Of a stretch of DNA of 64,000 bases, positions 19,236 through 41,169 are shown one piece after another. Within the stretch, counting starts at the first letter, position 1. Each line of letters opens with the position of its first letter. Origin of the DNA: an uncultured Chitinophaga sp. (lineage in GTDB: Bacteria > Bacteroidota > Bacteroidia > UKL13-3); contig CAYHCF010000002.1 of the NCBI GenBank assembly GCA_964355075.1, positions 16,480 through 80,479 on the forward strand. The letters run 5' to 3'. The position numbers were made by a program, and so were the translations under genes. Under the pieces are notes generated by a model. It saw nothing but the letters and a program-made list of their open reading frames with translations. It did not search any database and was not told the DNA's origin.

Positions 19236-19271
19236 ATGACTAAAATCATATTTATTTTTGACCAATGTCAA
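19236..19271 (+). promoter_or_regulatory. Pair of Crp/Fnr-type palindromic boxes upstream of the 1441-aa activase-like gene
   Basis: aTGACtaaaaTCAt (19236-19249) and tTGACcaatGTCAa (19258-19271). Centres are 22 bp apart, and the proximal box centre lies about 110 nt before ATG 19375. The same architecture recurs at 23819-23854. Confidence 0.4.
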
Positions 19272-19374
19272 GAAATAGATTCCGCGATATTTGTTTTTTC
19301 GTTTAGCTATAAAACTACCTCCTTTTTATGTTAGGTGAAAAGGATTTTATTAATGATTATTTAAAGCAAGGCTT

Positions 19375-22300
19375 ATGAAAAACATGAATTCTACCCGTCA
19401 CATGGGTATTTGTATTGGCGCTTCTTCTGTATCGGTTGTAGAGCTTCAGAAAGATCATGAAGAAATAAAGTTGACATCATACAGTACAAAGCCACACCAT
19501 GGCAACCCCAAACAAATAATTGAGGAAATTTTCAGCAAAGAAACACCGGATAAAATAGTTGTAACCGGACGGAAATTTCGGAATTTATTAAACATCACTT
19601 CCATTCCCGAACCAGAAGCTGTAGAACTTGCTGCCGAATACCTTCAACTGAATACGGATATAATAATCAGTGCGGGCGGGGAAAATTTTATCATCTATCT
19701 TTTAGATAAAAACCGGAAAATATCAAAGTGCATGACAGGGAATAAATGCGCATCCGGTACCGGAGAATTTTTCCTTCAGCAAATCCAGCGTATGAACCTT
19801 TCGGTGGAGGATGCAATTGCATTAAGTGGTGAAGGAGAGGCATACAATATTTCAGGTAGGTGTTCGGTTTTTTGCAAATCTGACTGCACCCATGCATTAA
19901 ACAAAGGTGTTGCAAAGCAAGATGTAATTGCGGGTTTATGCCGCATGATGGCTAATAAAATCATTGAATTAACTTCTCATATTTCTTGTGACAGGGCAGT
20001 TATTATTGGTGGGGTAGCACGAAACAACAAAATATTAAATACCCTTCATGAGCATTTTAATGAATTGATCGTACCGGATGAAGCTGCCTATTTCGAAGCC
20101 CTTGGAGCGGCTCTTCATTCCGCAAATAATGAAGTGCCTTCTGTGGATATTGAATCATTATTCAGAAAAGAGCATATTTCTTTTACTTTTCATAAAGACT
20201 TGAAACAATTTGTGGATTTTGTTGATTTCAAGGAATTTCAAAAAGGGGAAGTCGCCGAAAATGATGTGTGTATTTTAGGTTTGGATGTGGGTTCAACCAC
20301 TACCAAAGCAATCATGATGCGGGTATCTGACAATGCAGTACTCGCAACAGAATACTTGCGTACCAATGGAGATCCTATCCAGGCTTCTATTGAATGCTAT
20401 AAAAGCCTGAAAGAAAAATTGAATACGAAGGTAAAGATAATCGGTTTGGGGGTTACGGGTTCCGGAAGGCATATTTCTGGGCTTCATGCCAATACCAAAG
20501 GAATTGTAAATGAGATTCTGGCGCATGCAAATGCCACGATTTATTTTGATAAAGATGTTGATACGATTTTTGAAATTGGTGGTCAGGATGCAAAATATAC
20601 CTTTATTACTGCAGGGGTTCCTTCTGATTATGCCATGAACGAAGCCTGTTCGGCAGGTACCGGTTCTTTCCTTGAGGAGGCCGCCAAAGAATCTTTAAAT
20701 ATAGATTATAAACTGATTGGAGACATTGCTTTAATGGCATCCAATCCACCCAATTTTAATGATCAGTGTTCGGCATTTATAAGCAGTGATGTAAAAAACG
20801 CCTTACATGAAGGATTAAATAAAGAAGACATTGTTGCAGGATTAGTTTATTCCATCTGTTTGAATTTTACCAATCGTGTAAAAGGAAACAGACCCGTTGG
20901 AAACAAGGTATTCATGCAAGGGGGTGTCTGTTATAATAAGGCCGTACCCATCGCAATGGCAGCTTTAACAGGCAAGCATATTATTGTACCGCCTGAACCC
21001 GGATTGATGGGTGCATTTGGGGTGGCATTGGAAATTAAAGAAAGATTGGCCCTTAACCTGTTTGAAGAACAACATTTTGATCTGGATGAATTAATAAACC
21101 GGAAAGTTGAATACGGAAAATCATTTATTTGTGCCGGACAACCAGAAGGGTGTGACCGTAAATGCAATGTTAATTTGATACTGATTGAAGGCAGAAAAAT
21201 TCCATTTGGCGGGGCATGTAACAAATATTACGACTACCGCAAAACCAAATCAAAAGAAAAGGCAAATAGTAATTTAGTTAAAGTAAGGCAAGATCTTGTT
21301 TTCGAAAAATATGCTCCATTTCATGAAGTAGCAGAAAATTCAAAGGTATTGGCCATTCCAAAATCATTTTTGGTAAATACGCTTTATCCGCTTTATTATA
21401 ATTTCTTTTCAAAATTAGGATTCAAAGTTGTATTGGGTGAAGAAGCGGTAAAGGAGGGAATCGACAAGCAGCAGGCCTCTTTCTGTTATCCTGTTGAACT
21501 GGCCCATGGGTTTTTTCAGGGACTCATTGACCTCAAACCTGATTATATTTTTCTGCCTCATATAACTGAAATTTATGATCCACTTGATAAAAACTACAAT
21601 AAAACCTGCATTTTACTTCAGTCTGAAGCCTATTATTTACAATCTACTTTTAATAAATCGATCGGCGATATTAAAATACTTGCCCCGATTATTAATTTTT
21701 CACAAGGTTATGCAAGTGGAAAGGATAGTTTTATTGACCTTGCGATCAGTTTAGGAAAAAGCACGTCTCAGGCTGAGGCTGCATTCAAATTTGCGATCAA
21801 TCAGTTGATGCAAATGTTTGAAGAATTTAAAGCCTTGGGAAAACAGGCAATGGAGGATTTGGCAAAGGATCCAAAGCAGATAGCTATTGTGCTCTTTGGG
21901 CGTTCTTATAATGCATTTGCCAAAGAAGCAAACCTTGGAATCCCCCAGAAATTCTCTTCACGTAACCTAACACTTATACCCCATGACTTTATTCCAAGTG
22001 CACATCTCGAAAGTTATGAAAACATGTATTGGGGAACCGGTAATCAAATATTGCGTTCAGCCCGGTTTGTAAAAAATCATGAACAACTGTTTGGAACCTA
22101 TATTACCAATTTCAGTTGCGGACCCGATTCGATGATGATTCCGTATTTCAGAAAAATTATGGGTAACAAGCCATCACTTACCCTGGAGCTCGACAGTCAC
22201 TCAGCGGATGCCGGTTTAAACACACGAATTGAAGCTGCTGTTGATATTATTAACAGATACCGGGAACTTACCAAAAAAGGTATGCTTAATGAAACCGCTA

Positions 22301-23700
22301 GCAACTTTAAGCAAGTGGAAGTTCATGGCGATATTGTTATAGATTCAAATGGTAAAAAACACAGTATCAGGGACAAGAATGTGAAAATTCTGGTTCCTAG
22401 CATGGGAAGATTTGCTACTGATGGTTTTGCTGCTGCCTTCAGATTCTCTGGAATTAATTCGGAACCATTGCCTGTATATTCTTATGAAACCTTAAAAACG
22501 GGTCGAGGTTTAACCACTTCAAAAGAATGTATTCCTTTAACACTTTGCGCAGGAGCAATGGTTAATCATCAAAATAAAAATCCAAAAGAAGATGAAATCA
22601 CCCTGATGTTTATGTCTACAGGTTGTGGGCCATGCAGACAAGGTCAGTATACCGTTTACCTGAAAGACATCATTGCCAATAAAAATCTTAAAAATCATGG
22701 CATATTTACGCTCACTGATGAAGATTCCTACAGCGGGTTGGGTACAGATTTTGTAATTCGTGGATTTACGGCGCTCACTATTTCAGATGTATATCAGAAT
22801 TTGTATTTTGCAGTAGCTGCCCTTGCAGTTGATAAGGAAAAAGCACTTGAAATGGTGGATCAGGAATGGGAAAAGATCGTAGAAAAAATTGAAAAAGGGA
22901 CGGCATCCGAAGTGTATAACCAGCTTGAGATTGCTGCAAAGAAATTTAGTACAATCGAAAAAATAACTACCATCGAGAAAGCCGTTAAAGTGGCATTAAT
23001 CGGAGAGATATTTGTGCGCAATGAAGACTTTTCAAGAAGAGAACTGGTTCAAAAATTGTTAGAACAGCATATCGTGATAAAAACAGCACCAATTGGTGAA
23101 TATTTGTTATATGCAAATTATCAGATAAAACGATTGTATAAAGAGCATTTACCATCTCTTAACTCAAGAATGCGTTTTAAATTGAGAGAAATTATTCAAA
23201 GAAAAGTAGAATTAAAAATTAAAAATATACTGGCTAAATCCGGATTCTACGAATATGAACCCATTGAGATTGAGAACGTAATAAAACATTCAAAAGGGCT
23301 GATACCGATTGAATTAGAAGGGGAAGCGATTCTAACAGTGGGTAGTGCCATGGCTGATATTGTTCATCATGCATCAGGTATTGTATCACTGGGACCGTTC
23401 GGATGTATGCCATCTCGTGTTGCCGAATCCATTTTAAGTGTAAATATGAATGTAAAAGGGAAGGAAAATGCACAGGGAAAAGAGTTAAAAATGAACAATT
23501 CTGAAATCGAAAATTTGCCATTTTTATCTGTTGAAACCGACGGGAATTTATTTCCTCAGATCATTCAATCCAAATTAGAGATTTTCATTTTGCAAACCAC
23601 CCGTCTTCATAAAGCATTAATGAAAAGTTCTGAAGAAAAACAAAAAAGTTTTACATTAGGTTTATTGGATAAAATAAAGGCTCAGCTCAATCTGTTTTAG
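19375..23700 (+). CDS. Giant acyl-CoA dehydratase/BCR activase-related protein: two BcrAD/BadFG/HgdC-type ATPase domains fused to a Cys-rich C-terminal region of about 800 aa
   Basis: Domain 1 has MGICIGASS..., NKCASGTGEFF and GRCSVFCKSD. Domain 2 has ILGLDVGSTTTKA, EIGGQDAKY, NEACSAGTGSFLEE and NDQCSAFISSD. The C-terminal part has CAGQPEGCDRKCNVN...GGACNKYY, NFSCGPDS, STGCGPCRQGQ and LGPFGCMPSRV motifs, as in the uncharacterised CoA-substrate-specific enzyme activase fusion family. Confidence 0.75.
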   Translation: MKNMNSTRHMGICIGASSVSVVELQKDHEEIKLTSYSTKPHHGNPKQIIEEIFSKETPDKIVVTGRKFRNLLNITSIPEPEAVELAAEYLQLNTDIIISAGGENFIIYLLDKNRKISKCMTGNKCASGTGEFFLQQIQRMNLSVEDAIALSGEGEAYNISGRCSVFCKSDCTHALNKGVAKQDVIAGLCRMMANKIIELTSHISCDRAVIIGGVARNNKILNTLHEHFNELIVPDEAAYFEALGAALHSANNEVPSVDIESLFRKEHISFTFHKDLKQFVDFVDFKEFQKGEVAENDVCILGLDVGSTTTKAIMMRVSDNAVLATEYLRTNGDPIQASIECYKSLKEKLNTKVKIIGLGVTGSGRHISGLHANTKGIVNEILAHANATIYFDKDVDTIFEIGGQDAKYTFITAGVPSDYAMNEACSAGTGSFLEEAAKESLNIDYKLIGDIALMASNPPNFNDQCSAFISSDVKNALHEGLNKEDIVAGLVYSICLNFTNRVKGNRPVGNKVFMQGGVCYNKAVPIAMAALTGKHIIVPPEPGLMGAFGVALEIKERLALNLFEEQHFDLDELINRKVEYGKSFICAGQPEGCDRKCNVNLILIEGRKIPFGGACNKYYDYRKTKSKEKANSNLVKVRQDLVFEKYAPFHEVAENSKVLAIPKSFLVNTLYPLYYNFFSKLGFKVVLGEEAVKEGIDKQQASFCYPVELAHGFFQGLIDLKPDYIFLPHITEIYDPLDKNYNKTCILLQSEAYYLQSTFNKSIGDIKILAPIINFSQGYASGKDSFIDLAISLGKSTSQAEAAFKFAINQLMQMFEEFKALGKQAMEDLAKDPKQIAIVLFGRSYNAFAKEANLGIPQKFSSRNLTLIPHDFIPSAHLESYENMYWGTGNQILRSARFVKNHEQLFGTYITNFSCGPDSMMIPYFRKIMGNKPSLTLELDSHSADAGLNTRIEAAVDIINRYRELTKKGMLNETASNFKQVEVHGDIVIDSNGKKHSIRDKNVKILVPSMGRFATDGFAAAFRFSGINSEPLPVYSYETLKTGRGLTTSKECIPLTLCAGAMVNHQNKNPKEDEITLMFMSTGCGPCRQGQYTVYLKDIIANKNLKNHGIFTLTDEDSYSGLGTDFVIRGFTALTISDVYQNLYFAVAALAVDKEKALEMVDQEWEKIVEKIEKGTASEVYNQLEIAAKKFSTIEKITTIEKAVKVALIGEIFVRNEDFSRRELVQKLLEQHIVIKTAPIGEYLLYANYQIKRLYKEHLPSLNSRMRFKLREIIQRKVELKIKNILAKSGFYEYEPIEIENVIKHSKGLIPIELEGEAILTVGSAMADIVHHASGIVSLGPFGCMPSRVAESILSVNMNVKGKENAQGKELKMNNSEIENLPFLSVETDGNLFPQIIQSKLEIFILQTTRLHKALMKSSEEKQKSFTLGLLDKIKAQLNLF

Positions 23701-23818
23701 GGGTCAGATTTAATTCAATTGTTTGCCATGACCCCAATTCAGCCTGTACCGGTGAAGTTGTTTTGGTTAAATCGGAAAATGGCGAACTTAAAAAATATTT
23801 TTTATTTTCACTTACAAT

Positions 23819-23952: not shown

Positions 23953-25116
23953 ATGAAAACATTAGAAAAAATAATACAAGATTGTGAATCACTGGCATTT
24001 GACTTGAGTTTTACAAGGGCTAAGGAGTGGAAATCGGAAGATCCAAAGCGAATTATTGTAGGTTATCTACCTATCTATATCCCGCGTGAAATTATTCATG
24101 CTGCAAATGGAATTGCGGTAGGCATTATGGGTTCAGGCGACCGAAAACAGATTATCAAGGGAGACGCTTATTATCAATCCTATATATGTCATTTCCCAAG
24201 AGGTGTTATCGAAATGGCATTAGATAACAATCTGGATGGATTTGACGGATTTCTGTTCCCTGCCATATGTGACTGTGTTCGGAATCTTTCGGGCATGTTT
24301 AAATTATCCAAAAAGGGGAAATTTCAACGTTATTTTGACTACCCTCAAAATTTCGAATCCCATATAGGTGGAACTTTTTACAAACAGGAAATTGAAAAGG
24401 TTCTGGACGATATGTTTGCCATCAACGGGATAAAGGTTACTACCAAAGCACTTAATCAATCGATCCTTTTATATAACAGAAACAGAAACCTGATTGAGAA
24501 AATATATGATATCAGACAAGCAACGCCATGGAAACTATCAGCCGTTGAAACCTATTATATTCTTAGAGCTGGTCAGGTAATTCCTGTTGAAGAGCACAAT
24601 GAAATATTGGAACAAGTAGTTTCTCATTTACAAAATGAGAGAGGAGAGCCAATGGACAATATCCGTATAGTTGTTAGCGGCTCCTTCTGCGAACAACCCC
24701 CAATTGGCTTGATAAAGTCGATAGAATTGGCAGGTTGCTATATTGTGGAGGATGATTTTATGTTGGGATCAAGACTCATACAGGGAAATATAAACGCAGA
24801 TTCAGACATCCCTCTGGAAACCCTGGCAGATGCCTATATCAATCACAGTACATTCTCCTCGGCTTTTTATGATGTTGGAAATCCCAAGGGAAAACGACTG
24901 GTAAAACTGGCAAAGGAAAGAAATGCAGATGGTATCATTTTCTGTGCGGCCAGCTTTTGTGACCCTGCCCTACTCGACCGCCCGGAAATGCAGAAAGAAT
25001 GTGACCTTGCAGGAATTCCGCATATCAATTTCCAATTCCATGAAAATACCGGTCAGTTTAAAGTAATAAAAGAACAAGCCGGAACTTTCTCTGATTCGAT
25101 AAAGCTTTGGGCATAA
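23953..25116 (+). CDS. bcrC: Benzoyl-CoA reductase (class I) subunit C-like protein (BCR/2-hydroxyacyl-CoA dehydratase family)
   Basis: 387 aa, first gene of a C-B-A-D ordered set. N-terminal ...RAKEWK...IVGYLPIYIPREIIHAANG and the Cys pattern are typical of the family. Size and position match BcrC/BadD as I recall them. Confidence 0.6.
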   Translation: MKTLEKIIQDCESLAFDLSFTRAKEWKSEDPKRIIVGYLPIYIPREIIHAANGIAVGIMGSGDRKQIIKGDAYYQSYICHFPRGVIEMALDNNLDGFDGFLFPAICDCVRNLSGMFKLSKKGKFQRYFDYPQNFESHIGGTFYKQEIEKVLDDMFAINGIKVTTKALNQSILLYNRNRNLIEKIYDIRQATPWKLSAVETYYILRAGQVIPVEEHNEILEQVVSHLQNERGEPMDNIRIVVSGSFCEQPPIGLIKSIELAGCYIVEDDFMLGSRLIQGNINADSDIPLETLADAYINHSTFSSAFYDVGNPKGKRLVKLAKERNADGIIFCAASFCDPALLDRPEMQKECDLAGIPHINFQFHENTGQFKVIKEQAGTFSDSIKLWA

Positions 25117-25239
25117 TTCAAATTATGAGTTATGAGTTATGAATTTGATTTATTAATGTTTAACGGATAGGTGGAGATTGCATCTGCCCTTCATGGATGA
25201 AAACAATGTTTTAAATATAAAAAAAAATTATTAATTATT

Positions 25240-26544
25240 ATGAGCAAAGGACATCAAGAGGCAATTAAAGAAAATAGCATGGTTATCCAAAAGGAGATGC
25301 TTGCCAAACAATTTAAGGAATTAAGTACTGCGAGTGAACTTGGCAAAAAAGTTGTTTATACTTTTGTTCCGGGAAACCTTACCGAACTTATTCTATCATT
25401 TGACATGCTACCGGTGTACCCCGAGATCAATGCCTTGCAGTCGGGTATGCGAAAAAAATCTGCTGATTATATCCGCGACGCTGAAAAGGTAGGATACTCA
25501 GAAGATGTTTGTACTTACGTAAAATGCGATGTAGGAATGATGTTGAACGGAAATATTGGTCCAACAGGAGAAAAAATTCCGCCACCCGATTTATTATTAT
25601 TGAGCTATACAGGTTGTTTTACTTTTTTAAAATGGTTTGAGAATCTCGAACGCTTGTATCCGGGAGTACCGGTTGCCATGTTGCATACACCCTATCAGGA
25701 AGATGGTAAAATATCTCAGGATCAAATTGACTACATGGTTAAACAAATGAAAGAGGAAGTGATACCAAAAATGGAAATGGTATCCGGGCAGAAATTTGAT
25801 ATGGACCGTCTTTCAAAGATGCTTGTAAATTCAGCAAAAGCTGAAGACTTACTGGTAAAGATTTTAGAGAGTGCAAAACAGGTGCCATCACCTATTGATG
25901 CTTATTTTGCCGGCGTATATTATATAGGCCCGATTTTCACGGCTTTTAGAGGTACCGAAGAAGCTGTAGAATATTATACTGAACTATGGAATGAGGTTCA
26001 GGAAAGAATGAGATTGGGTTTAGGCCCTATTACTCCGGAAGGGGAATTGAAAGAAGAGAAATTCAGGTTGGTTGTTGAAGGACCTCCTAACTGGACTAAT
26101 TTCAGAGAGTTTTGGAAAATATTTTATGATATGGGAGCTGTTATAGTTGCCTCATCCTACACCAAAGTGGGTGGTGTTTACGATCAGGGGTTCAGACATG
26201 ACAGTAAAGAACCGCTTGAAAGTTTAGCAAAATATTGTATGGGGGTTTACACCAATCTGAACCTGCCACAACGTGTGGACATGCTTGAAAAATATGTAAA
26301 AGATTATAAGGCCGACGGTTTTCTTATCAATTCCATAAAAAGCTGCAACTCCTTCTCTGCAGGCCAATTAATGATTATGAGAGAGATTGAACAGAGGGCT
26401 GGAGTGCCTGTTGGATTTATCGAATCTGATTTGGTTGACCCCAGGTACTTTTCCTATGCCAATATTAAGAATAGATTAGAATCGTATTTCCAGATGTTGG
26501 GTCAGCGGAAAATCATAATAAAACAGGTAGAAGCAGAAGTGTAA
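25240..26544 (+). CDS. bcrB: Benzoyl-CoA reductase (class I) subunit B-like protein
   Basis: 434 aa BCR/HAD-family protein (VVYTFVPGNLTELILSFDMLPVYPE..., CTYVKCD). Second position in the four-gene set; size close to BcrB/BadE. Confidence 0.6.
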   Translation: MSKGHQEAIKENSMVIQKEMLAKQFKELSTASELGKKVVYTFVPGNLTELILSFDMLPVYPEINALQSGMRKKSADYIRDAEKVGYSEDVCTYVKCDVGMMLNGNIGPTGEKIPPPDLLLLSYTGCFTFLKWFENLERLYPGVPVAMLHTPYQEDGKISQDQIDYMVKQMKEEVIPKMEMVSGQKFDMDRLSKMLVNSAKAEDLLVKILESAKQVPSPIDAYFAGVYYIGPIFTAFRGTEEAVEYYTELWNEVQERMRLGLGPITPEGELKEEKFRLVVEGPPNWTNFREFWKIFYDMGAVIVASSYTKVGGVYDQGFRHDSKEPLESLAKYCMGVYTNLNLPQRVDMLEKYVKDYKADGFLINSIKSCNSFSAGQLMIMREIEQRAGVPVGFIESDLVDPRYFSYANIKNRLESYFQMLGQRKIIIKQVEAEV

Positions 26545-26712
26545 TTGGTAATCGGTAATTGGTAATTGGTAATTGGTAATTGGTAATCGGTAATTGGTCC
26601 CTTCGACAAGCTCAGGATGACAAATTTTGTTGTCATAGTGAGCCTGTCGAACTACGGTAATTGGTATTTGGTAATCGGTAATTGGTAATCGGTAATTGGT
26701 AATTGGTAATTG
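26541..26712. repeat. Composite repeat: 8 x GTAATYG heptamers, a 50-nt imperfect palindromic core, then 8 x GTAATYG heptamers
   Basis: Heptamer arrays at 26541-26596 and 26657-26712 lie in direct orientation. The core hairpin has arms 26602-26623 and 26630-26651 (22-nt arms, 3 mismatches). The first heptamer overlaps the bcrB-like stop codon. Confidence 0.9.
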
Positions 26713-26750
26713 GTTTAAAAAAAATAAATTAGCATATAAAATAGAATTAA

Positions 26751-28166: not shown

Positions 28167-28182
28167 AAATAAATAATAATAA

Positions 28183-33091: not shown

Positions 33092-34942
33092 ATGATGGAA
33101 AAATCAGAAAAACTAAAAGTCGGAGTGGTAGGATTAGGTCCTGTTGGAATGATTCTGGCAGTCAAATTAAAAGAGGCTGACTGCGAAGTTTCGATATGCG
33201 ATAAAGATGATTTTAAACTTAAAAAAATAAGAGAAAGCGGTATTGTATTAGAAAATGCCATTGAATCGAGTACCCGTTTCGAACGGATTTTTGATTCGAT
33301 TGTGGATATGAGATCTCAGGATCTTGATTACCTCATTTTCGCTTTAAAATCTTATCAAACAATAGGAGCTGTTAAAGAGGCTGAGTTATTAAATACAGAA
33401 AAACTCACTTTGGTTTCGGCTCAAAATGGGATAGATGTAGAACAGCTAATTACGGCAACTTTTGGCGAATCCAAAACGCTGCGCATGATTGTAAATTTTG
33501 CCGGAAATATGAAATCCGCAAATACAGTAAAGGTTTCTTTTGTAAATCCTCCAAATTATTTAGGTTCGGTTGATGACAGCAGAACAAAGGAAGCGATTAT
33601 TCTTGCTGAAACTTTGAATAAAGTTGGATTCAGAACTGAAAAATTAGATTCTTTTGACCTGGTAAAAAGCATTTGGCAGAAAACAATTTTAAATGCATCT
33701 TTAAGTGCTTTATGCGGTGTGGGCAGGTTAACTATGGCTGAGGCTATGGCTGATAATGATACAATGGAACTCGTTGAACAAATCATGAATGAGGGAATTG
33801 AGGTTGCCGAAAAGGAGAAGATTCGTTTTGCAGATGATTTTGTTAGAAAATGCATGCAATATCTTAAAAAGGGGGGCGACCATTTTCCCTCATTATCTGT
33901 TGACTTAATAAATAACCGGCCCACCGAAATAGATTTTTTTAATGGAAAAATTGTTGAATATGGCAAAAAGCATTATGTAAAAACTTCTCTAAACCTGGCA
34001 TTTACAAATATGGTGAAGGCCATGACCAATAAAAATGTATTAAACCGGTTTCCCGGTATTGATGAAGAATTATATAAAAAAATTATCAATAAAGGAATGA
34101 TTGAAAAGAGTCGTTCCACTATTTATTATAAAGAACATGATTGCTTCCTTGGAATTGACTTAGGATCGGCATTTACCAAGTTTAATATTATTGATGGGAA
34201 CTCCAATCCCGTGTTCAGGTATATTTTACCTACCATGAACAAAGACCGGAATGCCATGAAAAATGTTCTGAAATCAATTTATGCTTCCTTCCAGATTAAA
34301 CATAGTTGCGCAACCGGTTATGGCAGGAAACATTTTACAGAAACAGATATTATAAAAACAGAAATAAACTGTGCGGCTGTTGGGGTGGGTGAATTTTTCC
34401 AGGGAGAGAAAAATATCATTGATATTGGAGGAGAAGATATTAAGATCATTCATACCAATCAAGAGAATTTTGTTGCAAATTTTTACATGAACGACAAATG
34501 TGCTGCAGGTACCGGCGCTTTTCTGGAAGAAATTTCGGAGAGAGCAGAAATAAATAACGGCGAAATGAGTAGTCTGGCAGCACATTCGTCATTTGATAAA
34601 GAGTTAAATAGTTTCTGTACGGTATTTGCTAAAACCGAGATCATGAGTTGGGTATTTGAAGGCATGATGAAACAAGACATTGCAAGAGGAATCTATATTT
34701 CAATCGCCAATAAAGTAGCGAAAATGAAACTATTCCCAAATATTCCTACTTATTTAATCGGAGGCGTGGTAGCCCATCATCCCTATCTTGGAAATATTTT
34801 AAGCGAAAAATTCCATAAAGAAATACACGCGCTCGACAATCCCCAATATATTGTTGCACACGGTGCTGCTATTTTGGCTAAAGAAAACTGGCTTTTAAAC
34901 AATCCTAAAGAATTCATTATTTCAGAATCCATAACAAATTAA
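33092..34942 (+). CDS. Fusion protein: ketopantoate reductase (ApbA/PanE)-like NAD(P)-binding oxidoreductase plus HgdC/BcrAD-type activase ATPase
   Basis: The N-terminal region of about 320 aa has VGVVGLGPVGMILAVKL (Rossmann) and a PanE-like C-terminal helical part (...TEIDFFNGKIV). The C-terminal region of about 270 aa has FLGIDLGSAFTKF, DIGGEDIKII, MNDKCAAGTGAFLEE and SFCTVFAKTE. Confidence 0.7.
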   Translation: MMEKSEKLKVGVVGLGPVGMILAVKLKEADCEVSICDKDDFKLKKIRESGIVLENAIESSTRFERIFDSIVDMRSQDLDYLIFALKSYQTIGAVKEAELLNTEKLTLVSAQNGIDVEQLITATFGESKTLRMIVNFAGNMKSANTVKVSFVNPPNYLGSVDDSRTKEAIILAETLNKVGFRTEKLDSFDLVKSIWQKTILNASLSALCGVGRLTMAEAMADNDTMELVEQIMNEGIEVAEKEKIRFADDFVRKCMQYLKKGGDHFPSLSVDLINNRPTEIDFFNGKIVEYGKKHYVKTSLNLAFTNMVKAMTNKNVLNRFPGIDEELYKKIINKGMIEKSRSTIYYKEHDCFLGIDLGSAFTKFNIIDGNSNPVFRYILPTMNKDRNAMKNVLKSIYASFQIKHSCATGYGRKHFTETDIIKTEINCAAVGVGEFFQGEKNIIDIGGEDIKIIHTNQENFVANFYMNDKCAAGTGAFLEEISERAEINNGEMSSLAAHSSFDKELNSFCTVFAKTEIMSWVFEGMMKQDIARGIYISIANKVAKMKLFPNIPTYLIGGVVAHHPYLGNILSEKFHKEIHALDNPQYIVAHGAAILAKENWLLNNPKEFIISESITN

Positions 34943-34944
34943 TT

Positions 34945-36207
34945 ATGAAATCCTATCACGATAAAGACAAAGGTATTGCCATTTCATTTGACGATATCTA
35001 TTTAGTAAACGGAGTAAGAACTCCTTTTGGAAAATTTTGCGGAACCTTGGCAAATGTATCTCCTACAGATTTGGGGATATTCGCGTCAAAGGCTGCATTA
35101 AAAAAATCGGGAATTGAGCCTGACGATATTGATCAGGCCATTATAGCGAATATCGGACAAGCCTCTGGCGATGCCTATTTTCTTCCAAGGCATATCTCCT
35201 TATTTGCCGGGTTACGTATGACCGTTCCCTCATTAATGGTGCAGAGAATCTGTGCTTCAGGATTTGAAACACTCATTACTGCCGCCGAACAGATTACTTT
35301 AAATAAAGCAGGATCTGTTTTATGTTGTGGAACCGAAAACATGTCGCTTGCACCCACCGTAAGCTTTGGAAACCGGATGGGTTATGCTCTGGGAAGACCT
35401 GTTTTTAAAGATATGTTGTGGGAAGCTTTAGATGATACCGCTGCCGGATATCCAATGGGGTTTACGGCAGAAAATGTTGCCAAAAAACATCAAATCACCC
35501 GGGAACAATGCGATGAATTTGCATACCTGTCCTTTCAAAGAGCTTTGAATGCACAAAATAAGGAAATCTTTAAAGATGAAATTACTCCCATTAATTCAAC
35601 CGTGTTTGAAATAGAAGGGTTGAAACCAAGAAAGGTTCGTTTACCGGGTGGTGTTAAAAATTTTATAACGGATGAACAGATTCGCGATACTTCCATTGAA
35701 TCTCTAGCAAAATTACCAACCGTATTTTCTGAAGTTGGTGTTTTAACCCCGGGAAATTGCAGCGGTATCGTTGATGGAGCGGGTGCAGCTGTGGTTGCTG
35801 ATGCGAATACGGTTAAATCGAAGAATTTGAAACCCATCGCAAAAATTGTAGCTGCTGCCAGTTGCGGTATTGACCCAAAAATAATGGGATTGGCTCCTGT
35901 ACCTGCCATTCAGTTACTTCTCGAATTTACCGGATTAAAGATAGAGGATATCGGTTTGTTTGAAATAAATGAAGCATTTTCAGCACAGTTGATTGGTTGT
36001 GAAATCGAACTTGGACTAGACCGGGATAAACTAAATGTGAATGGGGGTGCCATCGCAATCGGGCATCCTTTGGCAGCATCGGGATTAAGACTTTCCTTAA
36101 CCATTATCCGTGAAATGAATTTGAGAAACATTAAATACGGAATTGCATCAGCTTGTATTGGAGGCGGACAAGGAACCGCGATTTTATTTGAAAATATTAA
36201 TCTATAA
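34945..36207 (+). CDS. Acetyl-CoA C-acyltransferase (thiolase)
   Basis: 420 aa. VQRICASGFE (active Cys), NEAFSAQ, NVNGGAIAIGHPLAASG and ACIGGGQGTA. Confidence 0.9.
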   Translation: MKSYHDKDKGIAISFDDIYLVNGVRTPFGKFCGTLANVSPTDLGIFASKAALKKSGIEPDDIDQAIIANIGQASGDAYFLPRHISLFAGLRMTVPSLMVQRICASGFETLITAAEQITLNKAGSVLCCGTENMSLAPTVSFGNRMGYALGRPVFKDMLWEALDDTAAGYPMGFTAENVAKKHQITREQCDEFAYLSFQRALNAQNKEIFKDEITPINSTVFEIEGLKPRKVRLPGGVKNFITDEQIRDTSIESLAKLPTVFSEVGVLTPGNCSGIVDGAGAAVVADANTVKSKNLKPIAKIVAAASCGIDPKIMGLAPVPAIQLLLEFTGLKIEDIGLFEINEAFSAQLIGCEIELGLDRDKLNVNGGAIAIGHPLAASGLRLSLTIIREMNLRNIKYGIASACIGGGQGTAILFENINL

Positions 36208-36210
36208 TAA

Positions 36211-37275
36211 ATGGAACAAAATAAAATGTATCAGTGGCAAATGACTGAATTGGATAAGCCATTTGTTTTATCGGAGAGTGTATTGCCTGAAACAAAATCA
36301 GGAGAGGCTCTGGTAAAAATAGCCGGTTGCGGAGTGTGTCATACCGATATCAGCTTTTGGCATCATGGTGTTCAAACCAAACATGCTTTACCCTTAACAC
36401 TCGGACACGAAATAAGCGGAACTGTAATTGCAGGTGACGAAAAATGGATTGGCAAAAAGGTGATTATTCCCGCTGTTCTTCCCTGTGGAGAATGTGAGCT
36501 ATGTTTGACCGGCAGGAGTAATATTTGCAGAAGTCAATTAATGCCCGGAAACGATTTTGACGGAGGTTTTGCTTCCCACATAAAAGTACCTTCCAGATAT
36601 TTATGCGAGGTTCCGGATAAAGTTTTGGAAAAATATTCGCTTGAACAGTTATCTGTTATCGCTGATGCTATTTCAACTCCTTACCAGGTGGTAAAGAAAT
36701 CGGAACTGGTTGCCGGAGATTTTGCAATTGTGATCGGTGTGGGTGGAGTTGGTATTTATGGGGCGCAGATCGCAAAAATATTTGGAGCAAAAGTTTTAGC
36801 CCTTGATATAAGTGATGAGAAATTAGAAATTGCCAAGCAAAATGGCGTTGATGCCACGCTCAACACAAAAGGACTCGACTTTAAAACCATCAAAGAGAAA
36901 GTGAAGGAGATTGCCAAAGAAATAAAGGCTCCAAAATATGGTTGGAAAATATTAGAAATTTCCGGAACCAAAGCCGGACAAGACCTGGCTTTTAACCTGA
37001 TTACTTTTGCCTCAACCCTTTCTATTGTTGGTTTTACGATGGATAAAGTGGAAGTTCGCTTAAGTAACCTGATGGCCTATGATGCAAAATTAATCGGAAC
37101 CTGGGGATGCAAACCTGAATTATATCCCGAGGTAGTTGAACTGGTGGCACAAGACAAACTAAAAATTGATCCCTTCATCGAAACTTTTCCAATGTCACTG
37201 ATTAATGAAGTTTTTAAAAATACGCTCGAACATAAATATACCAAAAGATCTGTTTTAATACCTGACTTTAATTAA
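36211..37275 (+). CDS. had: Zn-dependent alcohol dehydrogenase family; candidate 6-hydroxycyclohex-1-ene-1-carbonyl-CoA dehydrogenase
   Basis: 354 aa MDR. GCGVCHTD, GHEISG and the structural Zn site CGECELCLTGRSNIC. Position is immediately upstream of the Oah/BamA-like and Dch-like genes. The family call is firm; the substrate call is contextual. Confidence 0.55.
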   Translation: MEQNKMYQWQMTELDKPFVLSESVLPETKSGEALVKIAGCGVCHTDISFWHHGVQTKHALPLTLGHEISGTVIAGDEKWIGKKVIIPAVLPCGECELCLTGRSNICRSQLMPGNDFDGGFASHIKVPSRYLCEVPDKVLEKYSLEQLSVIADAISTPYQVVKKSELVAGDFAIVIGVGGVGIYGAQIAKIFGAKVLALDISDEKLEIAKQNGVDATLNTKGLDFKTIKEKVKEIAKEIKAPKYGWKILEISGTKAGQDLAFNLITFASTLSIVGFTMDKVEVRLSNLMAYDAKLIGTWGCKPELYPEVVELVAQDKLKIDPFIETFPMSLINEVFKNTLEHKYTKRSVLIPDFN

Positions 37276-37284
37276 ATTAAAAAA

Positions 37285-38385
37285 ATGGAAGAATTAAAAA
37301 ATCACAATATAGTTGATGTAAACTATAAAGAAATCATTTTCGAAAAACGTCCTTGCCTGGATAAGGATGGAACACCGGTTGATAAATTATTCAATGCCTG
37401 GATCATTATCAATAATCCAAAACAATTTAATTCGTACACTACGGCTGCCATAAAGGAATTAATACTTGCATTTCGGCAGGCTTCAAATGACCGAAGTGTT
37501 GTTGCTGTTGTTCTGACTTCGGTTGGTGATAAAGCATTTTGTACCGGTGGAAACACCAAAGAATATGCAGAATACTATGCAGGAAATCCCCAGGAATATT
37601 CACAATACATGCGTTTATTCAATGATATGGTTTCAACTATTCTGATGTGTGAAAAACCGGTTATCTGCCGTGTAAACGGAATGAGAATTGGCGGCGGTCA
37701 GGAAATTGGAATGGCTTGCGATTTTAGCGTTGCAAGTGATATGGCCAGATTTGGACAAGCAGGGCCAAAACATGGCAGTGCGGCTATAGGCGGAGCCACC
37801 GACTTTCTACCGCTATACGTTGGAGTTGAACGCGCTATGATGTCGTTAACCTTGTGTGAGCCATGGACAGCACATCAGGCTTATTATTATGGGGTTATTA
37901 CTGATATCGCTCCGGTTTTAAAAGCAGATGGGAAATTTATTGCCAATCCTTTGGTTCAAACAGAAAAAATAATGGACGAATATGGCAAGATTTCTTTTGG
38001 AACCATGAAAACAGGTGATGAACTCGCCAAAGCAAAGGAAATTGTTTCCAAATGTGAGACTGATTTAAGCATGCTGGATAAGGCCGTGAATAGCCTGATT
38101 TCAAAAATATTGCATACCTTCCCTAATTGTATGAGTAAAACCATCAGTGAGGTTCGCAAGTTTAAATTGGAACATTGGGATAAAAATAAAGAAGGAAGCC
38201 GCGAATGGCTGGCTTTAAATATGATGAGCGAAGCAAAAGCAGGATTCAAAGCATTTAATGATGGGCCTAAAGATAACAGGGAAGTTAATTTTATTTTATT
38301 AAGGCAATTACTTGCTGAAGGTCATGAGTGGAATGAGGAATTACATCATGCTATTTCACCGCAGTATCAGGCGTCAAATAATTAG
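37285..38385 (+). CDS. oah: Long crotonase-family protein; candidate 6-oxocyclohex-1-ene-1-carbonyl-CoA hydrolase (ring-cleaving, BamA/Oah)
   Basis: 366 aa, about 100 aa longer than ordinary enoyl-CoA hydratases. VGDKAFCTGGN and CRVNGMRIGGGQEIGMACDF resemble the Oah/BamA core as I recall it. Flanked by had-like and dch-like genes. Confidence 0.6.
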   Translation: MEELKNHNIVDVNYKEIIFEKRPCLDKDGTPVDKLFNAWIIINNPKQFNSYTTAAIKELILAFRQASNDRSVVAVVLTSVGDKAFCTGGNTKEYAEYYAGNPQEYSQYMRLFNDMVSTILMCEKPVICRVNGMRIGGGQEIGMACDFSVASDMARFGQAGPKHGSAAIGGATDFLPLYVGVERAMMSLTLCEPWTAHQAYYYGVITDIAPVLKADGKFIANPLVQTEKIMDEYGKISFGTMKTGDELAKAKEIVSKCETDLSMLDKAVNSLISKILHTFPNCMSKTISEVRKFKLEHWDKNKEGSREWLALNMMSEAKAGFKAFNDGPKDNREVNFILLRQLLAEGHEWNEELHHAISPQYQASNN

Positions 38386-38387
38386 AT

Positions 38388-39161
38388 ATGGAAAAAATAC
38401 AGGTAACATATTTATACGAAGATTCAGTTGTACGTATTCTGTTAAATGATGGTAAAGGTAATGTGCTCGACCACATCATGATGGAGGAATTGCAGGCAGT
38501 TTTGAATTCTTTTAGCACCGCCAATCAATTAAAGTTGATCATTTTTGAGGGTTCCGGGAAACATTTTTCATTTGGAGCCAGTGTGGAAGAGCATCAAAAA
38601 GATATGGCAGGAGCCATGCTTTCGTCGTTTCACAAATTATTTTATACGCTGCGTGATTTATCCATTCCAACTCTTGCAAAAATTACAGGACAATGCCTCG
38701 GAGGTGGAATGGAACTTGCCATCATGTGCAATTTTCTTTTTGCGGATCAAACTGCAAAATTTGGGCAACCCGAAATTATTCTGGGTGTATTCCCCCCTCC
38801 GGCATCAATTATTTTATCAGAAAAAATTGGTCTGGCCAGGGCAGAAGAATTGATAATTACCGGAAAAACGATAGGTGCTGAAGAAGCAAAAAACAGTGGT
38901 TTACTGAATTATTTATTTGAGGACAAAGCTGCTCTTGAAACCGGAACAAATGAATGGATAGAGCAGAATATCCTTCCAAAAAGTGCGTCTTCACTCAGAT
39001 TTGCCAACAAAGCAGTAAGACTAAAATTCAACCATTTACTTTCAAACTTCTTACCCCAGTTAGAACAATTGTACGTTAACAGTTTAATGGAAACAAATGA
39101 TGCCAATGAAGGGATCTGTTCATTTTTAGAAAAAAGAAAACCTCTTTGGAAAAATAATTAA
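38388..39161 (+). CDS. dch: Crotonase-family protein; candidate cyclohexa-1,5-diene-1-carbonyl-CoA hydratase
   Basis: 257 aa. KGNVLD...GSGKHFSFGASVEEH...GQCLGGGMELA. Context next to oah-like/had-like and bcr-like genes. Confidence 0.55.
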   Translation: MEKIQVTYLYEDSVVRILLNDGKGNVLDHIMMEELQAVLNSFSTANQLKLIIFEGSGKHFSFGASVEEHQKDMAGAMLSSFHKLFYTLRDLSIPTLAKITGQCLGGGMELAIMCNFLFADQTAKFGQPEIILGVFPPPASIILSEKIGLARAEELIITGKTIGAEEAKNSGLLNYLFEDKAALETGTNEWIEQNILPKSASSLRFANKAVRLKFNHLLSNFLPQLEQLYVNSLMETNDANEGICSFLEKRKPLWKNN

Positions 39162-39171
39162 CCTTAATACT

Positions 39172-41169
39172 ATGGAATCGTTAAAAACAGTTGGTGTTGT
39201 GGGAGCAGGTACGATGGGTTCAGCCCTCACTCAGAAATTTGCCCAGGAAGGATTTAAGGTTATTCTGGCAGACAGGACAATCAGCTTTGTAGACAGAGGA
39301 ATTAATGGCATAAAATCGAGTTTACAGGAAGGAATTCAAAAAAAGGTTTTTACAGAAGAACAAGCTGGTAAAACCCTCAGCAATATTTCCGGCACAGAAA
39401 ATCTGGAAGACTTAAAAGCTTGTGATATTGTTATTGAAGCCATATTTGAAAATTTTGATGCAAAAATTGATTTGTTTAAAAACCTATCAAATGTGTTATC
39501 CGATACTTGTATCATCGCAACCAATACTTCTTCTTTTTCAGTTAATGAATTAAGTGAATATGTAAAAAATCCTGAACGCTTTATTGGCTTGCATTATTTT
39601 TACCATGCGGCAAAAAATCGTCTGGTGGAAATTATCCCGAACAAAAAAACTTCTGCAGGTGTTATCGAAAGTGCCCGGCGTTTTTCGTTTATTTCAGGGA
39701 AAGATGCCATTTATTGTAAGGATTCCTACGGTTTTGTGGTAAACCGTTATTTTGTTCCCTGGTTGAATGAAGCTTGCAGGCTTCTGGAAGAAAATATTGG
39801 AAATATTCCTACCATTGATTCCGTTTGTTCAGAAAAATTTGGTGTAAGCATGGGTCCATTTGCATTAATGAATGCCACCGGAGTTCCCATTACCTATCAT
39901 TCCCAAAAAACACTTGAAGTATTTGGTGAACTCTATAAAACCTCAGAAATATTAAGGATTCAAACTGAATTAAACCAGCCATGGAGCCTTGAAGGAGAAG
40001 TATTGGCTGATGATGTGATCAGAAAAGAAATAGCGGAGCGGATGATCGGAATTGAATTTTTGGTATGTTCACAATTGCTTGAAGAAGAAACCTGCTCAGC
40101 CACCGAAATAAATCGTGGTGCCCGCATCGGTTTAAAATGGAGATCCGGCCCCATTGAATTAATGAGTAGATATGGCGAGGCAGAGACTCAAAGATTCGTA
40201 TCTTTAATAGCTAAAAGATACAATACCCCTGTTCCAGCTACGGTGGATTCAAGTTTCTGGAAACAAGCGTATGTATTATATGAAAAATGGGGTAAAAATG
40301 TTACCCTTACCATGTCGAGACCTGAAGATCTGAACGCACTTAATGAAGAGGTAATCAAACAACTTTTGGAAAAATTTACCATAGCTGATACAGATCCTGA
40401 AGTTGAAAATATCTTTTTGGTTGGTTCCGGAAAAGCCTTTGTTGCCGGCGCCGATATTAAATTTTTTGTTAAACACATGAAGGCGCTTTCCTTCGATAAA
40501 ATTGAAACCTTTACCCGATTCGGTCAGGACGTACTTGAAAGGATTGACCAATCAAACAAAAAGGTTATTGTTATTTTAAATGGAATGGCCTTAGGTGGAG
40601 GCTTAGAGCTGGCATTATGTGCCGACCTGATTGTGGCACTTCCAGGTGCAACTATGTCATTCCCGGAAACCGGTATTGGAATCTATCCGGGTTTGGGAGG
40701 AACACAGAGAAGCGCAAGAAGAATTGATAAAGCATTGAGTAAATACATGATTCATACCGGAAAGACATTAAGTGCAAAAGATGCTTTTGAAATTGGATTA
40801 GTAGATAAGGTCATTTCTGTTGAAGAAATGTTCGATTTGATTTATGGAAATATGGAATTACCTGCTCCTAATAAACCTGTCCTGAATGAAAAATGGCTCG
40901 CCATCAAGAATTTTTTCGAGGATCATAAGCTCGCTGAATTGCTCTCGCATCAGATTCACGATACACTGATTTCTAAAGAAGAAGCGGATCGCATTTGTAA
41001 AACATTGGCATTTAAAGCGCCTCTTGCTTTGCAATATGCCGACAAATTAATTGAAGATGCAAAAGGCTGCGCAGATGAATTGAATTATTTAACCAAAATT
41101 TTCAGCACGCAGGACGCATTGCTGGGATTGACTTCAATTGGAAAGCGGGTTGAATTTAAAGGGCACTAG
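39172..41169 (+). CDS. Bifunctional 3-hydroxyacyl-CoA dehydrogenase (N-terminal) / enoyl-CoA hydratase (C-terminal)
   Basis: 665 aa. VGVVGAGTMGSALTQ Rossmann and 3HCDH C-domains, then a crotonase fold (GSGKAFVAGADIKFF, LGGGLELALCAD, ETGIGIYPGLGGTQR). Confidence 0.85.
   Translation: MESLKTVGVVGAGTMGSALTQKFAQEGFKVILADRTISFVDRGINGIKSSLQEGIQKKVFTEEQAGKTLSNISGTENLEDLKACDIVIEAIFENFDAKIDLFKNLSNVLSDTCIIATNTSSFSVNELSEYVKNPERFIGLHYFYHAAKNRLVEIIPNKKTSAGVIESARRFSFISGKDAIYCKDSYGFVVNRYFVPWLNEACRLLEENIGNIPTIDSVCSEKFGVSMGPFALMNATGVPITYHSQKTLEVFGELYKTSEILRIQTELNQPWSLEGEVLADDVIRKEIAERMIGIEFLVCSQLLEEETCSATEINRGARIGLKWRSGPIELMSRYGEAETQRFVSLIAKRYNTPVPATVDSSFWKQAYVLYEKWGKNVTLTMSRPEDLNALNEEVIKQLLEKFTIADTDPEVENIFLVGSGKAFVAGADIKFFVKHMKALSFDKIETFTRFGQDVLERIDQSNKKVIVILNGMALGGGLELALCADLIVALPGATMSFPETGIGIYPGLGGTQRSARRIDKALSKYMIHTGKTLSAKDAFEIGLVDKVISVEEMFDLIYGNMELPAPNKPVLNEKWLAIKNFFEDHKLAELLSHQIHDTLISKEEADRICKTLAFKAPLALQYADKLIEDAKGCADELNYLTKIFSTQDALLGLTSIGKRVEFKGH

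Follow-up and report, generated by a model that had tools for sequence, protein, structure and literature searches.

A 64,000-nucleotide stretch of DNA from an uncultured Chitinophaga sp. (GenBank assembly GCA_964355075.1, contig CAYHCF010000002.1, positions 16,480 to 80,479; hereafter the window, in whose own numbering coordinates are given) carries a gene cluster that probably encodes an ATP-dependent class I benzoyl-coenzyme A (CoA) pathway of the Thauera or BCR type, native to a large group of uncultured Bacteroidota. The cluster lies in a run of 14 substantial open reading frames (ORFs) on the plus strand at 19375-41169, as counted from the ORF listing, with intergenic gaps of 2-252 nt and products of 1441, 387, 434, 471, 279, 710, 406, 157, 616, 420, 354, 366, 257 and 665 aa in 5' to 3' order. 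A first-pass annotation had described fifteen genes tightly packed on one strand; the packing and the strand were borne out, and the number falls to 14 because the ORF at the earlier start, 19236, has 32 codons only and is unsupported. Families were assigned by Pfam and NCBIfam profile searches, which confirmed each of the labels given earlier (activase fusion, bcrC-B-A-D, ADP-forming synthetase, dehydratase-type protein, thiolase, had-oah-dch, and a fused 3-hydroxyacyl-CoA dehydrogenase/enoyl-CoA hydratase, HAD/ECH). The earlier description of the genes was incomplete in one respect, having passed over a 157-aa protein (32576-33049) and a 616-aa fusion (33092-34942). The hidden Markov model E-values of the gene assignments span 1e-64 to 1e-210, and chance is therefore no concern. 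Gene identities and conserved linkage can be read from the sequence directly; the activities discussed below are those predicted from them.

Two subunits of the HGD-D type and two BcrAD_BadFG-type ATPase subunits are encoded together, in the order C-B-A-D, at 23953-29022. The products of bcrC (23953-25116; the non-catalytic subunit) and bcrB (25240-26544; the catalytic subunit) passed their equivalog models, with 456.7 bits on TIGR02263 (cut-off 421) and 697.2 bits on TIGR02260 (cut-off 487), respectively. For the electron-activating ATPase subunit A (bcrA, 26751-28166) and ATPase subunit D (bcrD, 28183-29022), the full-length best matches were TIGR02259 at 443.5 bits (cut-off 578) and TIGR02261 at 310.6 bits (cut-off 312.85), the latter just under its threshold. 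It had been left open earlier whether the four products might cluster with 2-hydroxyacyl-CoA dehydratases and their activators; they did not, and BcrB, at 697 bits on its own model, scored 198 bits on that of HadB, the alpha subunit of 2-hydroxyisocaproyl-CoA dehydratase, while BcrC scored 457 bits on TIGR02263. When aligned to the solved BzdO, MbdO and HadB chains, BcrB was found to keep the three cluster cysteines and the glutamate; the three [4Fe-4S] cysteine ligands and a glutamate are included in the published list of active-site residues (PMC11971306). His131 of BzdO was considered as a discriminator between reductases and dehydratases and was rejected: the position is Phe in both MbdO and the window BcrB, and the histidine is therefore not family-wide. 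Profile scores and aligned residues together predict a Thauera-type (BCR-type) class I reductase pathway rather than a 2-hydroxyacyl-CoA dehydratase.

The genes for ring opening and the lower pathway follow on the same strand. They comprise a thiolase (acetyl-CoA C-acyltransferase; 34945-36207; TIGR01930, 391 bits), had (6-hydroxycyclohex-1-ene-1-carbonyl-CoA dehydrogenase; 36211-37275; TIGR03201, 461.7 bits, cut-off 339), oah or bamA (6-oxocyclohex-1-ene-1-carbonyl-CoA hydrolase; 37285-38385; TIGR03200, 583.8 bits, cut-off 464), dch (a cyclohexa-1,5-diene-1-carbonyl-CoA hydratase-like crotonase; 38388-39161; best match TIGR03189, 215.5 bits, cut-off 292) and the HAD/ECH fusion (39172-41169; Pfam 3HCDH_N, 3HCDH and ECH_1). 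The 366-aa crotonase had been proposed to be Oah/BamA, and at 584 bits against a cut-off of 464 it does not fall outside that clade. The genes dch, had and oah form one operon-like array with the bcr genes, and this linkage is kept in relatives, where dch also comes after oah and, in two loci (L086 and L101), the HAD/ECH fusion comes after dch.

In the pathway proposed from these assignments, BcrA and BcrD would hydrolyze ATP and so drive a low-potential electron from ferredoxin into BcrB and BcrC, which would convert benzoyl-CoA to cyclohexa-1,5-diene-1-carbonyl-CoA. Dch would then hydrate this product, Had would oxidize it and Oah would open the ring hydrolytically to give 3-hydroxypimelyl-CoA, from which the fused HAD/ECH and the thiolase are predicted to yield glutaryl-CoA and acetyl-CoA. 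The electrons would come from a ferredoxin system encoded elsewhere in the genome.

The distribution of the cluster was examined in a synteny set of 160 loci, of which 80 were GTDB species-genome loci centered on BcrB (the best 80 of 296 matching genomes) and 80 were metagenome loci centered on Oah; individual loci are cited here by L numbers. At least 296 GTDB species genomes have a BcrB match, and the best 80 are almost all uncultured Bacteroidota or Ignavibacteria. BcrB relatives at 78-91% identity occur in metagenome-assembled genomes (MAGs) labeled Bacteroidia, Flavobacteriales, Chitinophagaceae, Saprospiraceae, Sphingobacteriales and Ignavibacteria, from environments that include groundwater, lakes, peat, soil and wastewater plants, and BcrC is 67-81% identical across 73 related loci. 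The order conserved in Bacteroidota is bcrC-B-A-D, a CoA-activating enzyme, hgdX, a ketopantoate reductase (KPR)-activase fusion, thiolase, had, oah, dch and HAD/ECH. On the 5' side of bcrC the relatives have either a hemerythrin gene or a divergent set, mocA-xdhC-SDR-hcrCA-hcrB-hemerythrin, in which SDR denotes a short-chain dehydrogenase/reductase. The rarity implied by the first-pass annotation did not hold up: the genes are automatically annotated as benzoyl-CoA reductase in many MAGs, both PGAP and IMG already name these Bacteroidota genes, and class I bcr genes have been published for MAGs of the FCB (Fibrobacterota-Chlorobiota-Bacteroidota) group.

A neighbor-joining tree placed the window BcrB in a low-GC clade, and the sister of this clade is a high-GC one (57-72% GC) with loci that read had-oah-dch-bcrCBAD. 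This is, we take it, the gene order of Thauera, and because of the match the high-GC clade is probably proteobacterial. The tree contained no labeled Thauera sequence, its anchors being the PDB chains MbdO, BzdO and HadB together with the unlabeled high-GC clade, and a tblastn search of plasmids for a named Thauera-type BcrB reference gave only matches of ≤26% identity; the Thauera-type assignment rests on the NCBIfam equivalogs, the PDB anchors and the unlabeled high-GC clade. Identity to the high-GC clade was 62-68% for BcrB, 45-49% for BcrC, 45-48% for BcrA and 49-53% for BcrD. BcrB was 33% identical to MbdO, and BzdO-like proteins were distant too. The operon looks mosaic, because Had and Dch are much closer to those of other low-GC clusters (61-83% and 54-75% identity, respectively) than to their counterparts in the high-GC BCR-type clade (45-51% and 36-43%).

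Some related loci depart from the common layout. A gene of ~381 aa resembling saccharopine dehydrogenase lies between bcrA and bcrD in 11 of them (including L004, L006, L014, L017, L028, L030, L044, L046, L058 and L079); L064 and L069 have it between bcrC and bcrB. The window does not have this gene, and the idea that the ORF interrupting bcrA-bcrD is a transposase was rejected on account of that resemblance. The Bacteroidota-type architecture, including the reductase-activase fusion, was also seen on a contig of 68% GC (L090, WBZY01000034.1), and BcrB-centered loci were found in bins labeled Armatimonadetes and Competibacteraceae (L056 and L004). These three cases reflect either transfer outside the phylum or mis-binning.

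The cluster had been taken to end at 41169. Synteny of the related loci shows, however, that the conserved unit also takes in a molybdenum-enzyme unit, which in the window occupies 42620-49306, again on the plus strand. It begins with a MocA-like molybdenum cofactor cytidylyltransferase (42620-43234; Pfam NTP_transf_3; TIGR03310, 88.8 bits), an XdhC-type molybdenum-enzyme maturation factor (43134-44042; Pfam XdhC_CoxI and XdhC_C), whose real start is probably later than the listed TTG, and an SDR-family oxidoreductase (43939-44748; Pfam adh_short_C2). These are followed by hcrCA (44745-47639), which encodes a 964-aa gamma-alpha fusion resembling the molybdenum enzyme 4-hydroxybenzoyl-CoA reductase, by hcrB (47651-48604), which encodes its 317-aa FAD/[4Fe-4S] beta subunit, and by a gene for a hemerythrin-HHE protein (48761-49306; Pfam Hemerythrin). 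The molybdenum, FAD and two [2Fe-2S] parts of the enzyme are thus all encoded by the fusion and hcrB. The best match of the alpha part by far was TIGR03194, though its 780.7 bits lie below the cut-off of 995; against structures, the molybdenum subunit scored 560 bits with the Thauera chain 1rm6_A and 349 bits with the next. The best PDB match of the beta subunit was 1rm6_B (TIGR03195, 199.8 bits, cut-off 404.55), with which the four cysteines of the extra [4Fe-4S] loop align. These cysteines are not unique to 4-hydroxybenzoyl-CoA reductases, because E. coli PaoB has a similar cluster.

Linkage between this unit and the bcr genes is extensive. Either the molybdenum-enzyme unit or the hemerythrin gene adjoins bcrC in 59 of the 65 related loci with enough upstream sequence, and a MocA homolog occurs in 40 of these 65, mostly in divergent orientation beside bcrC. 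The SDR, 59-70% identical in 37 related loci, always accompanies the molybdenum-enzyme genes; an hcrCA homolog lies less than 10 kb from bcrB in 23 related loci and a hemerythrin gene near the cluster in 34. Only in the window is ctaA (heme A synthase, 41497-42615) placed between the benzoyl-CoA genes and the molybdenum-enzyme genes, the latter having shifted downstream of the former, behind ctaA. The Hcr-like enzyme, matured by MocA and XdhC, would take the para-hydroxyl group off 4-hydroxybenzoyl-CoA, so that hydroxylated aromatics would also enter the pathway. The hemerythrin probably protects or repairs oxygen-labile clusters.

Between bcrD and the thiolase lies an accessory module that, to our knowledge, is not part of any described benzoyl-CoA cluster. 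Its first gene encodes a 710-aa ADP-forming (NDP-forming) acyl-CoA synthetase of fused alpha-beta type (29158-31290; Pfam CoA_binding, Succ_CoA_lig and ATP-grasp_5). The second, hgdX (31340-32560), encodes a single alpha-type subunit of the benzoyl-CoA reductase/2-hydroxyacyl-CoA dehydratase family (406 aa; Pfam HGD-D). The third encodes the 157-aa protein p157 (32576-33049), a stand-alone, Cys-rich C-terminal domain of a displaced AMP-forming ligase, with a weak match to AMP-binding_C_3. The last encodes the 616-aa fusion of a domain of the ketopantoate reductase family (PanE/ApbA) with an acyl-CoA dehydratase activase (33092-34942; Pfam ApbA, ApbA_C and BcrAD_BadFG). Sequence reaching at least 9.5 kb beyond bcrB on the downstream side was available for 51 loci, of which 45 have HgdX and 43 the PanE-activase fusion. 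Other low-GC lineages likewise have the module together with had-oah-dch.

HgdX scored 222 bits on the HadB model, 160 bits on that of BcrB and 60 bits on the double-cubane model; its best PDB match was HadB (3o3m), three cysteines and a glutamate are conserved, and in a neighbor-joining tree it fell on the HadB (dehydratase) side. The first-pass annotation called this an orphan dehydratase-type module, which HgdX is not, because an activase is encoded within the 616-aa fusion at 33092-34942. The GxGxxG, NG, WxK and TEID motifs of the ketopantoate reductase domain are intact, and the activase part (residues 353-597) has HadI as its best PDB match and both cluster cysteines of HadI/HgdC. In other lineages (P0266 and P0293) the PanE domain is fused to HgdX instead. 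The occurrence of both kinds of fusion suggests that the reductase, the activase and HgdX work together. Records at NCBI and JGI name the 616-aa fusion and its homologs (P0421-P0540) '2-dehydropantoate 2-reductase', with the result that the activase half and the dehydratase link are invisible in public annotation.

The CoA-activating enzyme varies among relatives. In the 56 loci with at least 7 kb downstream of bcrB, the ADP-forming enzyme was found in 18, a FadD-like AMP-forming ligase of ~581 aa that adjoins hgdX in 33, and both in 1, a nearly mutually exclusive pattern that points to non-orthologous displacement. Over residues 418-568 of the L074 ligase, the 157-aa protein shows 42% identity, and two loci (L021 and L040) have a longer truncated ligase fossil ahead of the synthetase. 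That p157 is a decaying pseudogene was considered and rejected, as it is a separate intact ORF in 14 of the 17 loci with the ADP-forming enzyme and five cysteines are kept in nearly all stand-alone and fused forms of the domain; the stand-alone forms are without the catalytic Lys motif.

In its components the module matches an (R)-2-hydroxyacyl-CoA dehydratase pathway, with a 2-oxoacid reductase that forms the (R)-product, a CoA-activating step, a dehydratase and its activase. We tentatively prefer the reading that the module feeds arylpyruvates derived from Phe and Tyr into benzoyl-CoA, which would use every conserved gene. The arylpyruvate would be reduced to the (R)-aryllactate or its CoA ester and activated with CoA, and radical dehydration would then give cinnamoyl- or 4-coumaroyl-CoA, which β-oxidation (by the enoyl-CoA hydratase, the SDR or HAD, and the thiolase) may convert to benzoyl- or 4-hydroxybenzoyl-CoA. 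No CoA-transferase was found for the module, the ADP-forming synthetase or AMP-forming ligase standing in its place, and a ligase instead of a CoA-transferase fits a product that remains a CoA ester and is oxidized further. Supporting hints for the arylpyruvate link come from β-eliminating lyases of the tryptophanase/tyrosine phenol-lyase family beside the cluster (two in L029, at 2948-5854, and one in L050, at 3993-5417) and from a class I/II aminotransferase and an 843-aa IOR-like 2-oxoacid:ferredoxin oxidoreductase that occur together with hcr, had, oah and dch in L095 and L097. D-mandelate dehydrogenases of the ketopantoate reductase family (PDB 3WFI) accept aromatic 2-oxoacids. A further hint is the reported expression of peptidases alongside benzoyl-CoA degradation enzymes in a Flavobacteriales MAG (PMC8099898). 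For a benzene degrader this same route has lately been put forward, though only as a proposal (PMC13416013). The more specific proposal, that the module represents a new branch of the ATP-primed benzoyl-CoA reductase/HAD radical-enzyme family that has no beta subunit, possibly with the Cys-rich domain as its second metal site, converts Phe- and Tyr-derived arylpyruvates via aryllactyl-CoA to cinnamoyl- or 4-coumaroyl-CoA and is widespread in uncultured FCB bacteria, is rather a long shot.

The main rival for the role of the module is a dicarboxylic 2-oxoacid, in which case 2-oxoglutarate would pass via (R)-2-hydroxyglutarate and 2-hydroxyglutaryl-CoA to glutaconyl-CoA, or the reverse, and the lower pathway would be linked to glutamate metabolism at the level of glutaconyl- or crotonyl-CoA. 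In favor of this are a set of components (reductase, CoA activation, dehydratase and activase) identical to that of the hydroxyglutarate pathway, the occurrence of glutaryl- and glutaconyl-CoA as lower-pathway intermediates, and the absence of a glutaryl-CoA dehydrogenase from the window. However, most loci have an AMP ligase in place of the ADP-forming enzyme, and this speaks against operation in reverse with a yield of ATP; two module-bearing loci (L091 and L094) have an ordinary GcdH-like acyl-CoA dehydrogenase linked to them; no genes for glutaconyl-CoA decarboxylase were seen; and the module travels together with the SDR and the Hcr unit, both of them superfluous for a glutamate route. 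A role in 2-oxoglutarate conversion is accordingly judged unlikely, and the arylpyruvate reading is retained as the preferred one.

Several observations weigh against the pathway proposed here and against the arylpyruvate role of its module. BcrA and Dch lie under their equivalog cut-offs (443 against 578 bits and 215 against 292 bits), as do all three parts of the Hcr-like enzyme (alpha, 781 against 995; beta, 200 against 404.55; gamma, 164 against 258), and a 28-aa repeat insertion in the molybdenum subunit of the window is absent from 12 orthologs. The window has no gene for a beta subunit of HgdX, hgdX being its sole HGD-D gene besides bcrB and bcrC, and none was found in module loci that lack bcr nearby; nor was a characterized HgdX relative found among the ten nearest representatives of clusters at 50% identity, which have generic names or none. 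No substrate-specific observation favors arylpyruvates over other 2-oxoacids. The 120 best BcrB clusters, the 80 best GTDB loci and the 120 best PanE-activase clusters included no cultured carrier. The host respires oxygen, to judge from the genes for heme A synthase and succinate dehydrogenase (ctaA and sdhCAB) in the window, and oxygen inactivates class I benzoyl-CoA reductases. Finally, genes for ferredoxin, a ferredoxin-reducing enzyme, glutaryl-CoA dehydrogenase and a ligase of the benzoate-CoA ligase family are absent from the window.

These last absences had been noted in the first-pass annotation and were corroborated, in that the window contained no CxxCxxCxxxCP ferredoxin motif, no pyruvate:ferredoxin oxidoreductase (PFOR) or 2-oxoglutarate:ferredoxin oxidoreductase (KGOR), no full AMP-forming ligase and no acyl-CoA dehydrogenase. 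In relatives, a PFOR of ~1190 aa (8 loci) and a single-cluster ferredoxin (6 loci) are encoded next to the benzoyl-CoA genes, just upstream. The electron donor is therefore probably a PFOR/ferredoxin system, encoded elsewhere in the genome, rather than the KGOR system of Thauera. The set found 5' of bcrC in Chitinophagaceae-type loci consists of the ~1190-aa PFOR, a U32-family protein of 413 aa, a ferredoxin of 73-78 aa and two unassigned proteins of 605-616 aa and ~148 aa; loci with the PFOR/U32/ferredoxin set are L022, L025, L033, L035, L036, L006, L028 and L016.

The low scores of the ATPase subunits bear on another possibility, namely that the BCR-type enzyme acts on a different aryl-CoA, such as a hydroxy-, methyl- or amino-benzoyl-CoA or a heteroaromatic CoA ester, in which case the cluster would serve a narrower substrate. 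BcrA and BcrD are under their cut-offs, identity between the clade and the high-GC BCR clade reaches only 45-68%, and a sister type, the 3-methylbenzoyl-CoA reductase MBR, specializes on 3-methylbenzoyl-CoA (PDB 9g87; PMC11971306). Against this, the cut-offs that BcrB and BcrC pass were trained on benzoyl-CoA reductases; Dch, Had and Oah, encoded in the same operon, act on unsubstituted ring products, and both Had and Oah pass their cut-offs; and an Hcr-like enzyme is sensible only where its product is benzoyl-CoA and this goes on to be reduced. A different substrate is consequently quite improbable, and benzoyl-CoA remains the predicted one.

The giant fused activase/DUF2229 protein that precedes bcrC (19375-23700, plus strand; 1441 aa, with two activase ATPase domains and DUF2229) had been counted among the genes of the pathway. 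In favor of a function there, for example as an extra electron-activating enzyme, are the short distance to bcrC, which starts 252 nt further on in the same orientation, and the BcrAD/HGD superfamily to which the fusion and the bcr products alike belong. A homolog of the fusion nevertheless adjoins bcr in 0 of the 80 related genome loci, its closest homologs, at 88% and 73% identity, stand alone in neighborhoods of unrelated housekeeping genes, and the family of ~1420-1470-aa fusions is widespread in Bacteroidota (including Bacteroidales), Ignavibacteria and Bacillota irrespective of bcr. The protein belongs to the long archerase fusions, a known class with no assigned function (PMC7317905). 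It is thus very doubtful that the giant fusion is a functional pathway part, and it is treated here as a neighbor that lies outside the conserved unit.

The flanks are of Bacteroidota type, as described earlier (sdhCAB, CHU_C and Por_Secre_tail proteins and ORF6N were all found), which supports a Bacteroidota-like host. That the region is instead an island recently acquired from Proteobacteria, or an assembly chimera, is a notion already largely refuted: in its favor are the proteobacterial origin of the characterized class I reductases, the recurrence of the window's flanking genes beside the cluster in 0 of 80 loci and the repeat elements inside the cluster and at its 3' edge, and against it are a synonymous-codon distance between cluster and flanks (0.085) no larger than that of random flank splits (0.100 ± 0.014), a GC content at third codon positions of 0.337 against 0.320-0.344, a tetranucleotide correlation of r ~0.97, the lack of any tRNA in the window and of any integrase or transposase among its ORFs of at least 120 aa, closest relatives that are all Bacteroidota or Ignavibacteria (78-91% identity in BcrB, against 62-68% to the high-GC clade), and the same arrangement on 4 contigs. 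The last point, together with the uniform composition, makes chimerism of the contig unlikely. As the genes that border the cluster in the window adjoin it in none of the 80 related loci, the genomic position of the cluster is not conserved; nothing indicates its recent import. The term 'island' is therefore not apt for a cluster that shows no compositional deviation, has no mobility genes and is conserved in hundreds of Bacteroidota species genomes.

The composite repeat elements reported earlier inside the cluster and at its 3' edge are real. One, in the bcrB-bcrA spacer (26541-26728), consists of two heptanucleotide arrays flanking a hairpin (z = -4.0), and the other, after the last pathway gene (41169-41450), of heptanucleotide arrays flanking a structured core (z = -3.7); a short heptanucleotide array also occurs at 25123-25157. 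The units of the intergenic arrays are GTAATTG, GGAAATG/GAGATGA and TTATGAG. A 7/21-nt tandem array at 46880-46960, in frame inside hcrCA, adds 28 residues (TIDDLRL-type heptads) and is of the same repeat kind as the intergenic elements. An Rfam scan of the window found no family at gathering score, and scans for sigma-70 promoters, terminators and the Bacteroidota -7 motif found none above shuffled expectation. Farther downstream lie two adjacent ORF6N-domain ORFs (49919-50872), the first of which holds only the C-terminal part of the domain, and a Uma2-family endonuclease with an AAA_14/DUF4143 ATPase (60638-62530); these ORFs may be remnants of defense systems or mobile elements.

Class I benzoyl-CoA reductases are described as enzymes of facultatively anaerobic bacteria and are best studied in Thauera (PMC11971306). 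Their biochemistry has so far come from few Proteobacteria, and here the same type is predicted in a native, widely conserved operon of Bacteroidota and Ignavibacteria. If active, it would mean that these groups, usually seen as degraders of polymers and peptides, turn over lignin- or amino-acid-derived aromatics under anoxic or micro-oxic conditions in the habitats of the carriers (groundwater, lakes, peat, soil and activated sludge). The exchange of an AMP-forming for an ADP-forming enzyme would halve the cost of activation, a case of non-orthologous displacement in an energy-limited pathway. The module could add a new reaction and a single-subunit architecture to the benzoyl-CoA reductase/2-hydroxyacyl-CoA dehydratase family and, if the arylpyruvate reading is true, would represent an anaerobic route, not demonstrated before, by which aromatic amino acids reach benzoyl-CoA in uncultured FCB bacteria of soils, lakes, groundwater and wastewater plants.

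The closest characterized counterpart is the pathway of Thauera aromatica. Both have four subunits C-B-A-D, BcrB and BcrC of the window pass equivalog models built on the Thauera enzyme, Dch, Had and Oah are co-located in both, and ATP-driven electron activation is predicted here as well. The window differs in its host, an uncultured Bacteroidota, in the lack of a ferredoxin or 2-oxoglutarate:ferredoxin oxidoreductase gene in the cluster, and in the extra HgdX/KPR-activase/CoA-activating module inside the operon. Similarly, Thauera HcrCAB (PDB 1RM6/1SB3) is the best match for the alpha and beta parts of the molybdenum enzyme, shares the four aligned [4Fe-4S]-loop cysteines and is likewise linked to benzoyl-CoA genes, whereas for the gamma domain it is only the third-best small-subunit match; in the window gamma is fused to alpha (964 aa), the scores are below the equivalog cut-offs and the 28-aa repeat insertion is present.

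The module resembles the clostridial dehydratase systems HadBC/HadI, FldABC/FldI and HgdAB/HgdC in that HgdX is alpha-type with the three-Cys site and the glutamate, the activase has both bridging-cluster cysteines and HadI as best PDB match, and an (R)-specific 2-oxoacid reductase is the partner. The clostridial enzymes are alpha/beta heterodimers, whereas the module has no beta subunit and has a CoA ligase or ADP-forming synthetase but no CoA-transferase; its reductase is of the ketopantoate reductase family and is fused to the activase (elsewhere to HgdX), a Cys-rich ligase C-domain always adjoins it, and it sits in an oxidative aromatic pathway and not in a reductive fermentation. The double-cubane cluster protein DCCP and its reductase DCCP-R (PMC7317905) set a precedent for a catalytic family member that is homodimeric, encoded by one gene and served by an activase of its own. 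HgdX differs from DCCP in its scores, which are only 60 bits for the double-cubane model and 222 bits for HadB.

Among uncultured FCB bacteria, the accessible text of two reports describes class I bcrABCD as common in Krumholzibacteriota MAGs (PMC10936416) and, in a Flavobacteriales MAG, enzymes of anaerobic benzoyl-CoA degradation expressed together with peptidases (PMC8099898). To the extent of that text, those MAGs are like the window in having a full class I gene set and hcr genes, with transcript evidence, and the HgdX/KPR-activase module, the ligase-to-synthetase displacement and the spread over Bacteroidota orders are not described there. Already known, then, are class I bcr genes in FCB MAGs and the public names of the genes; new are the conserved HgdX/KPR-activase/Cys-domain module and the displacement of a ligase by an ADP-forming synthetase.

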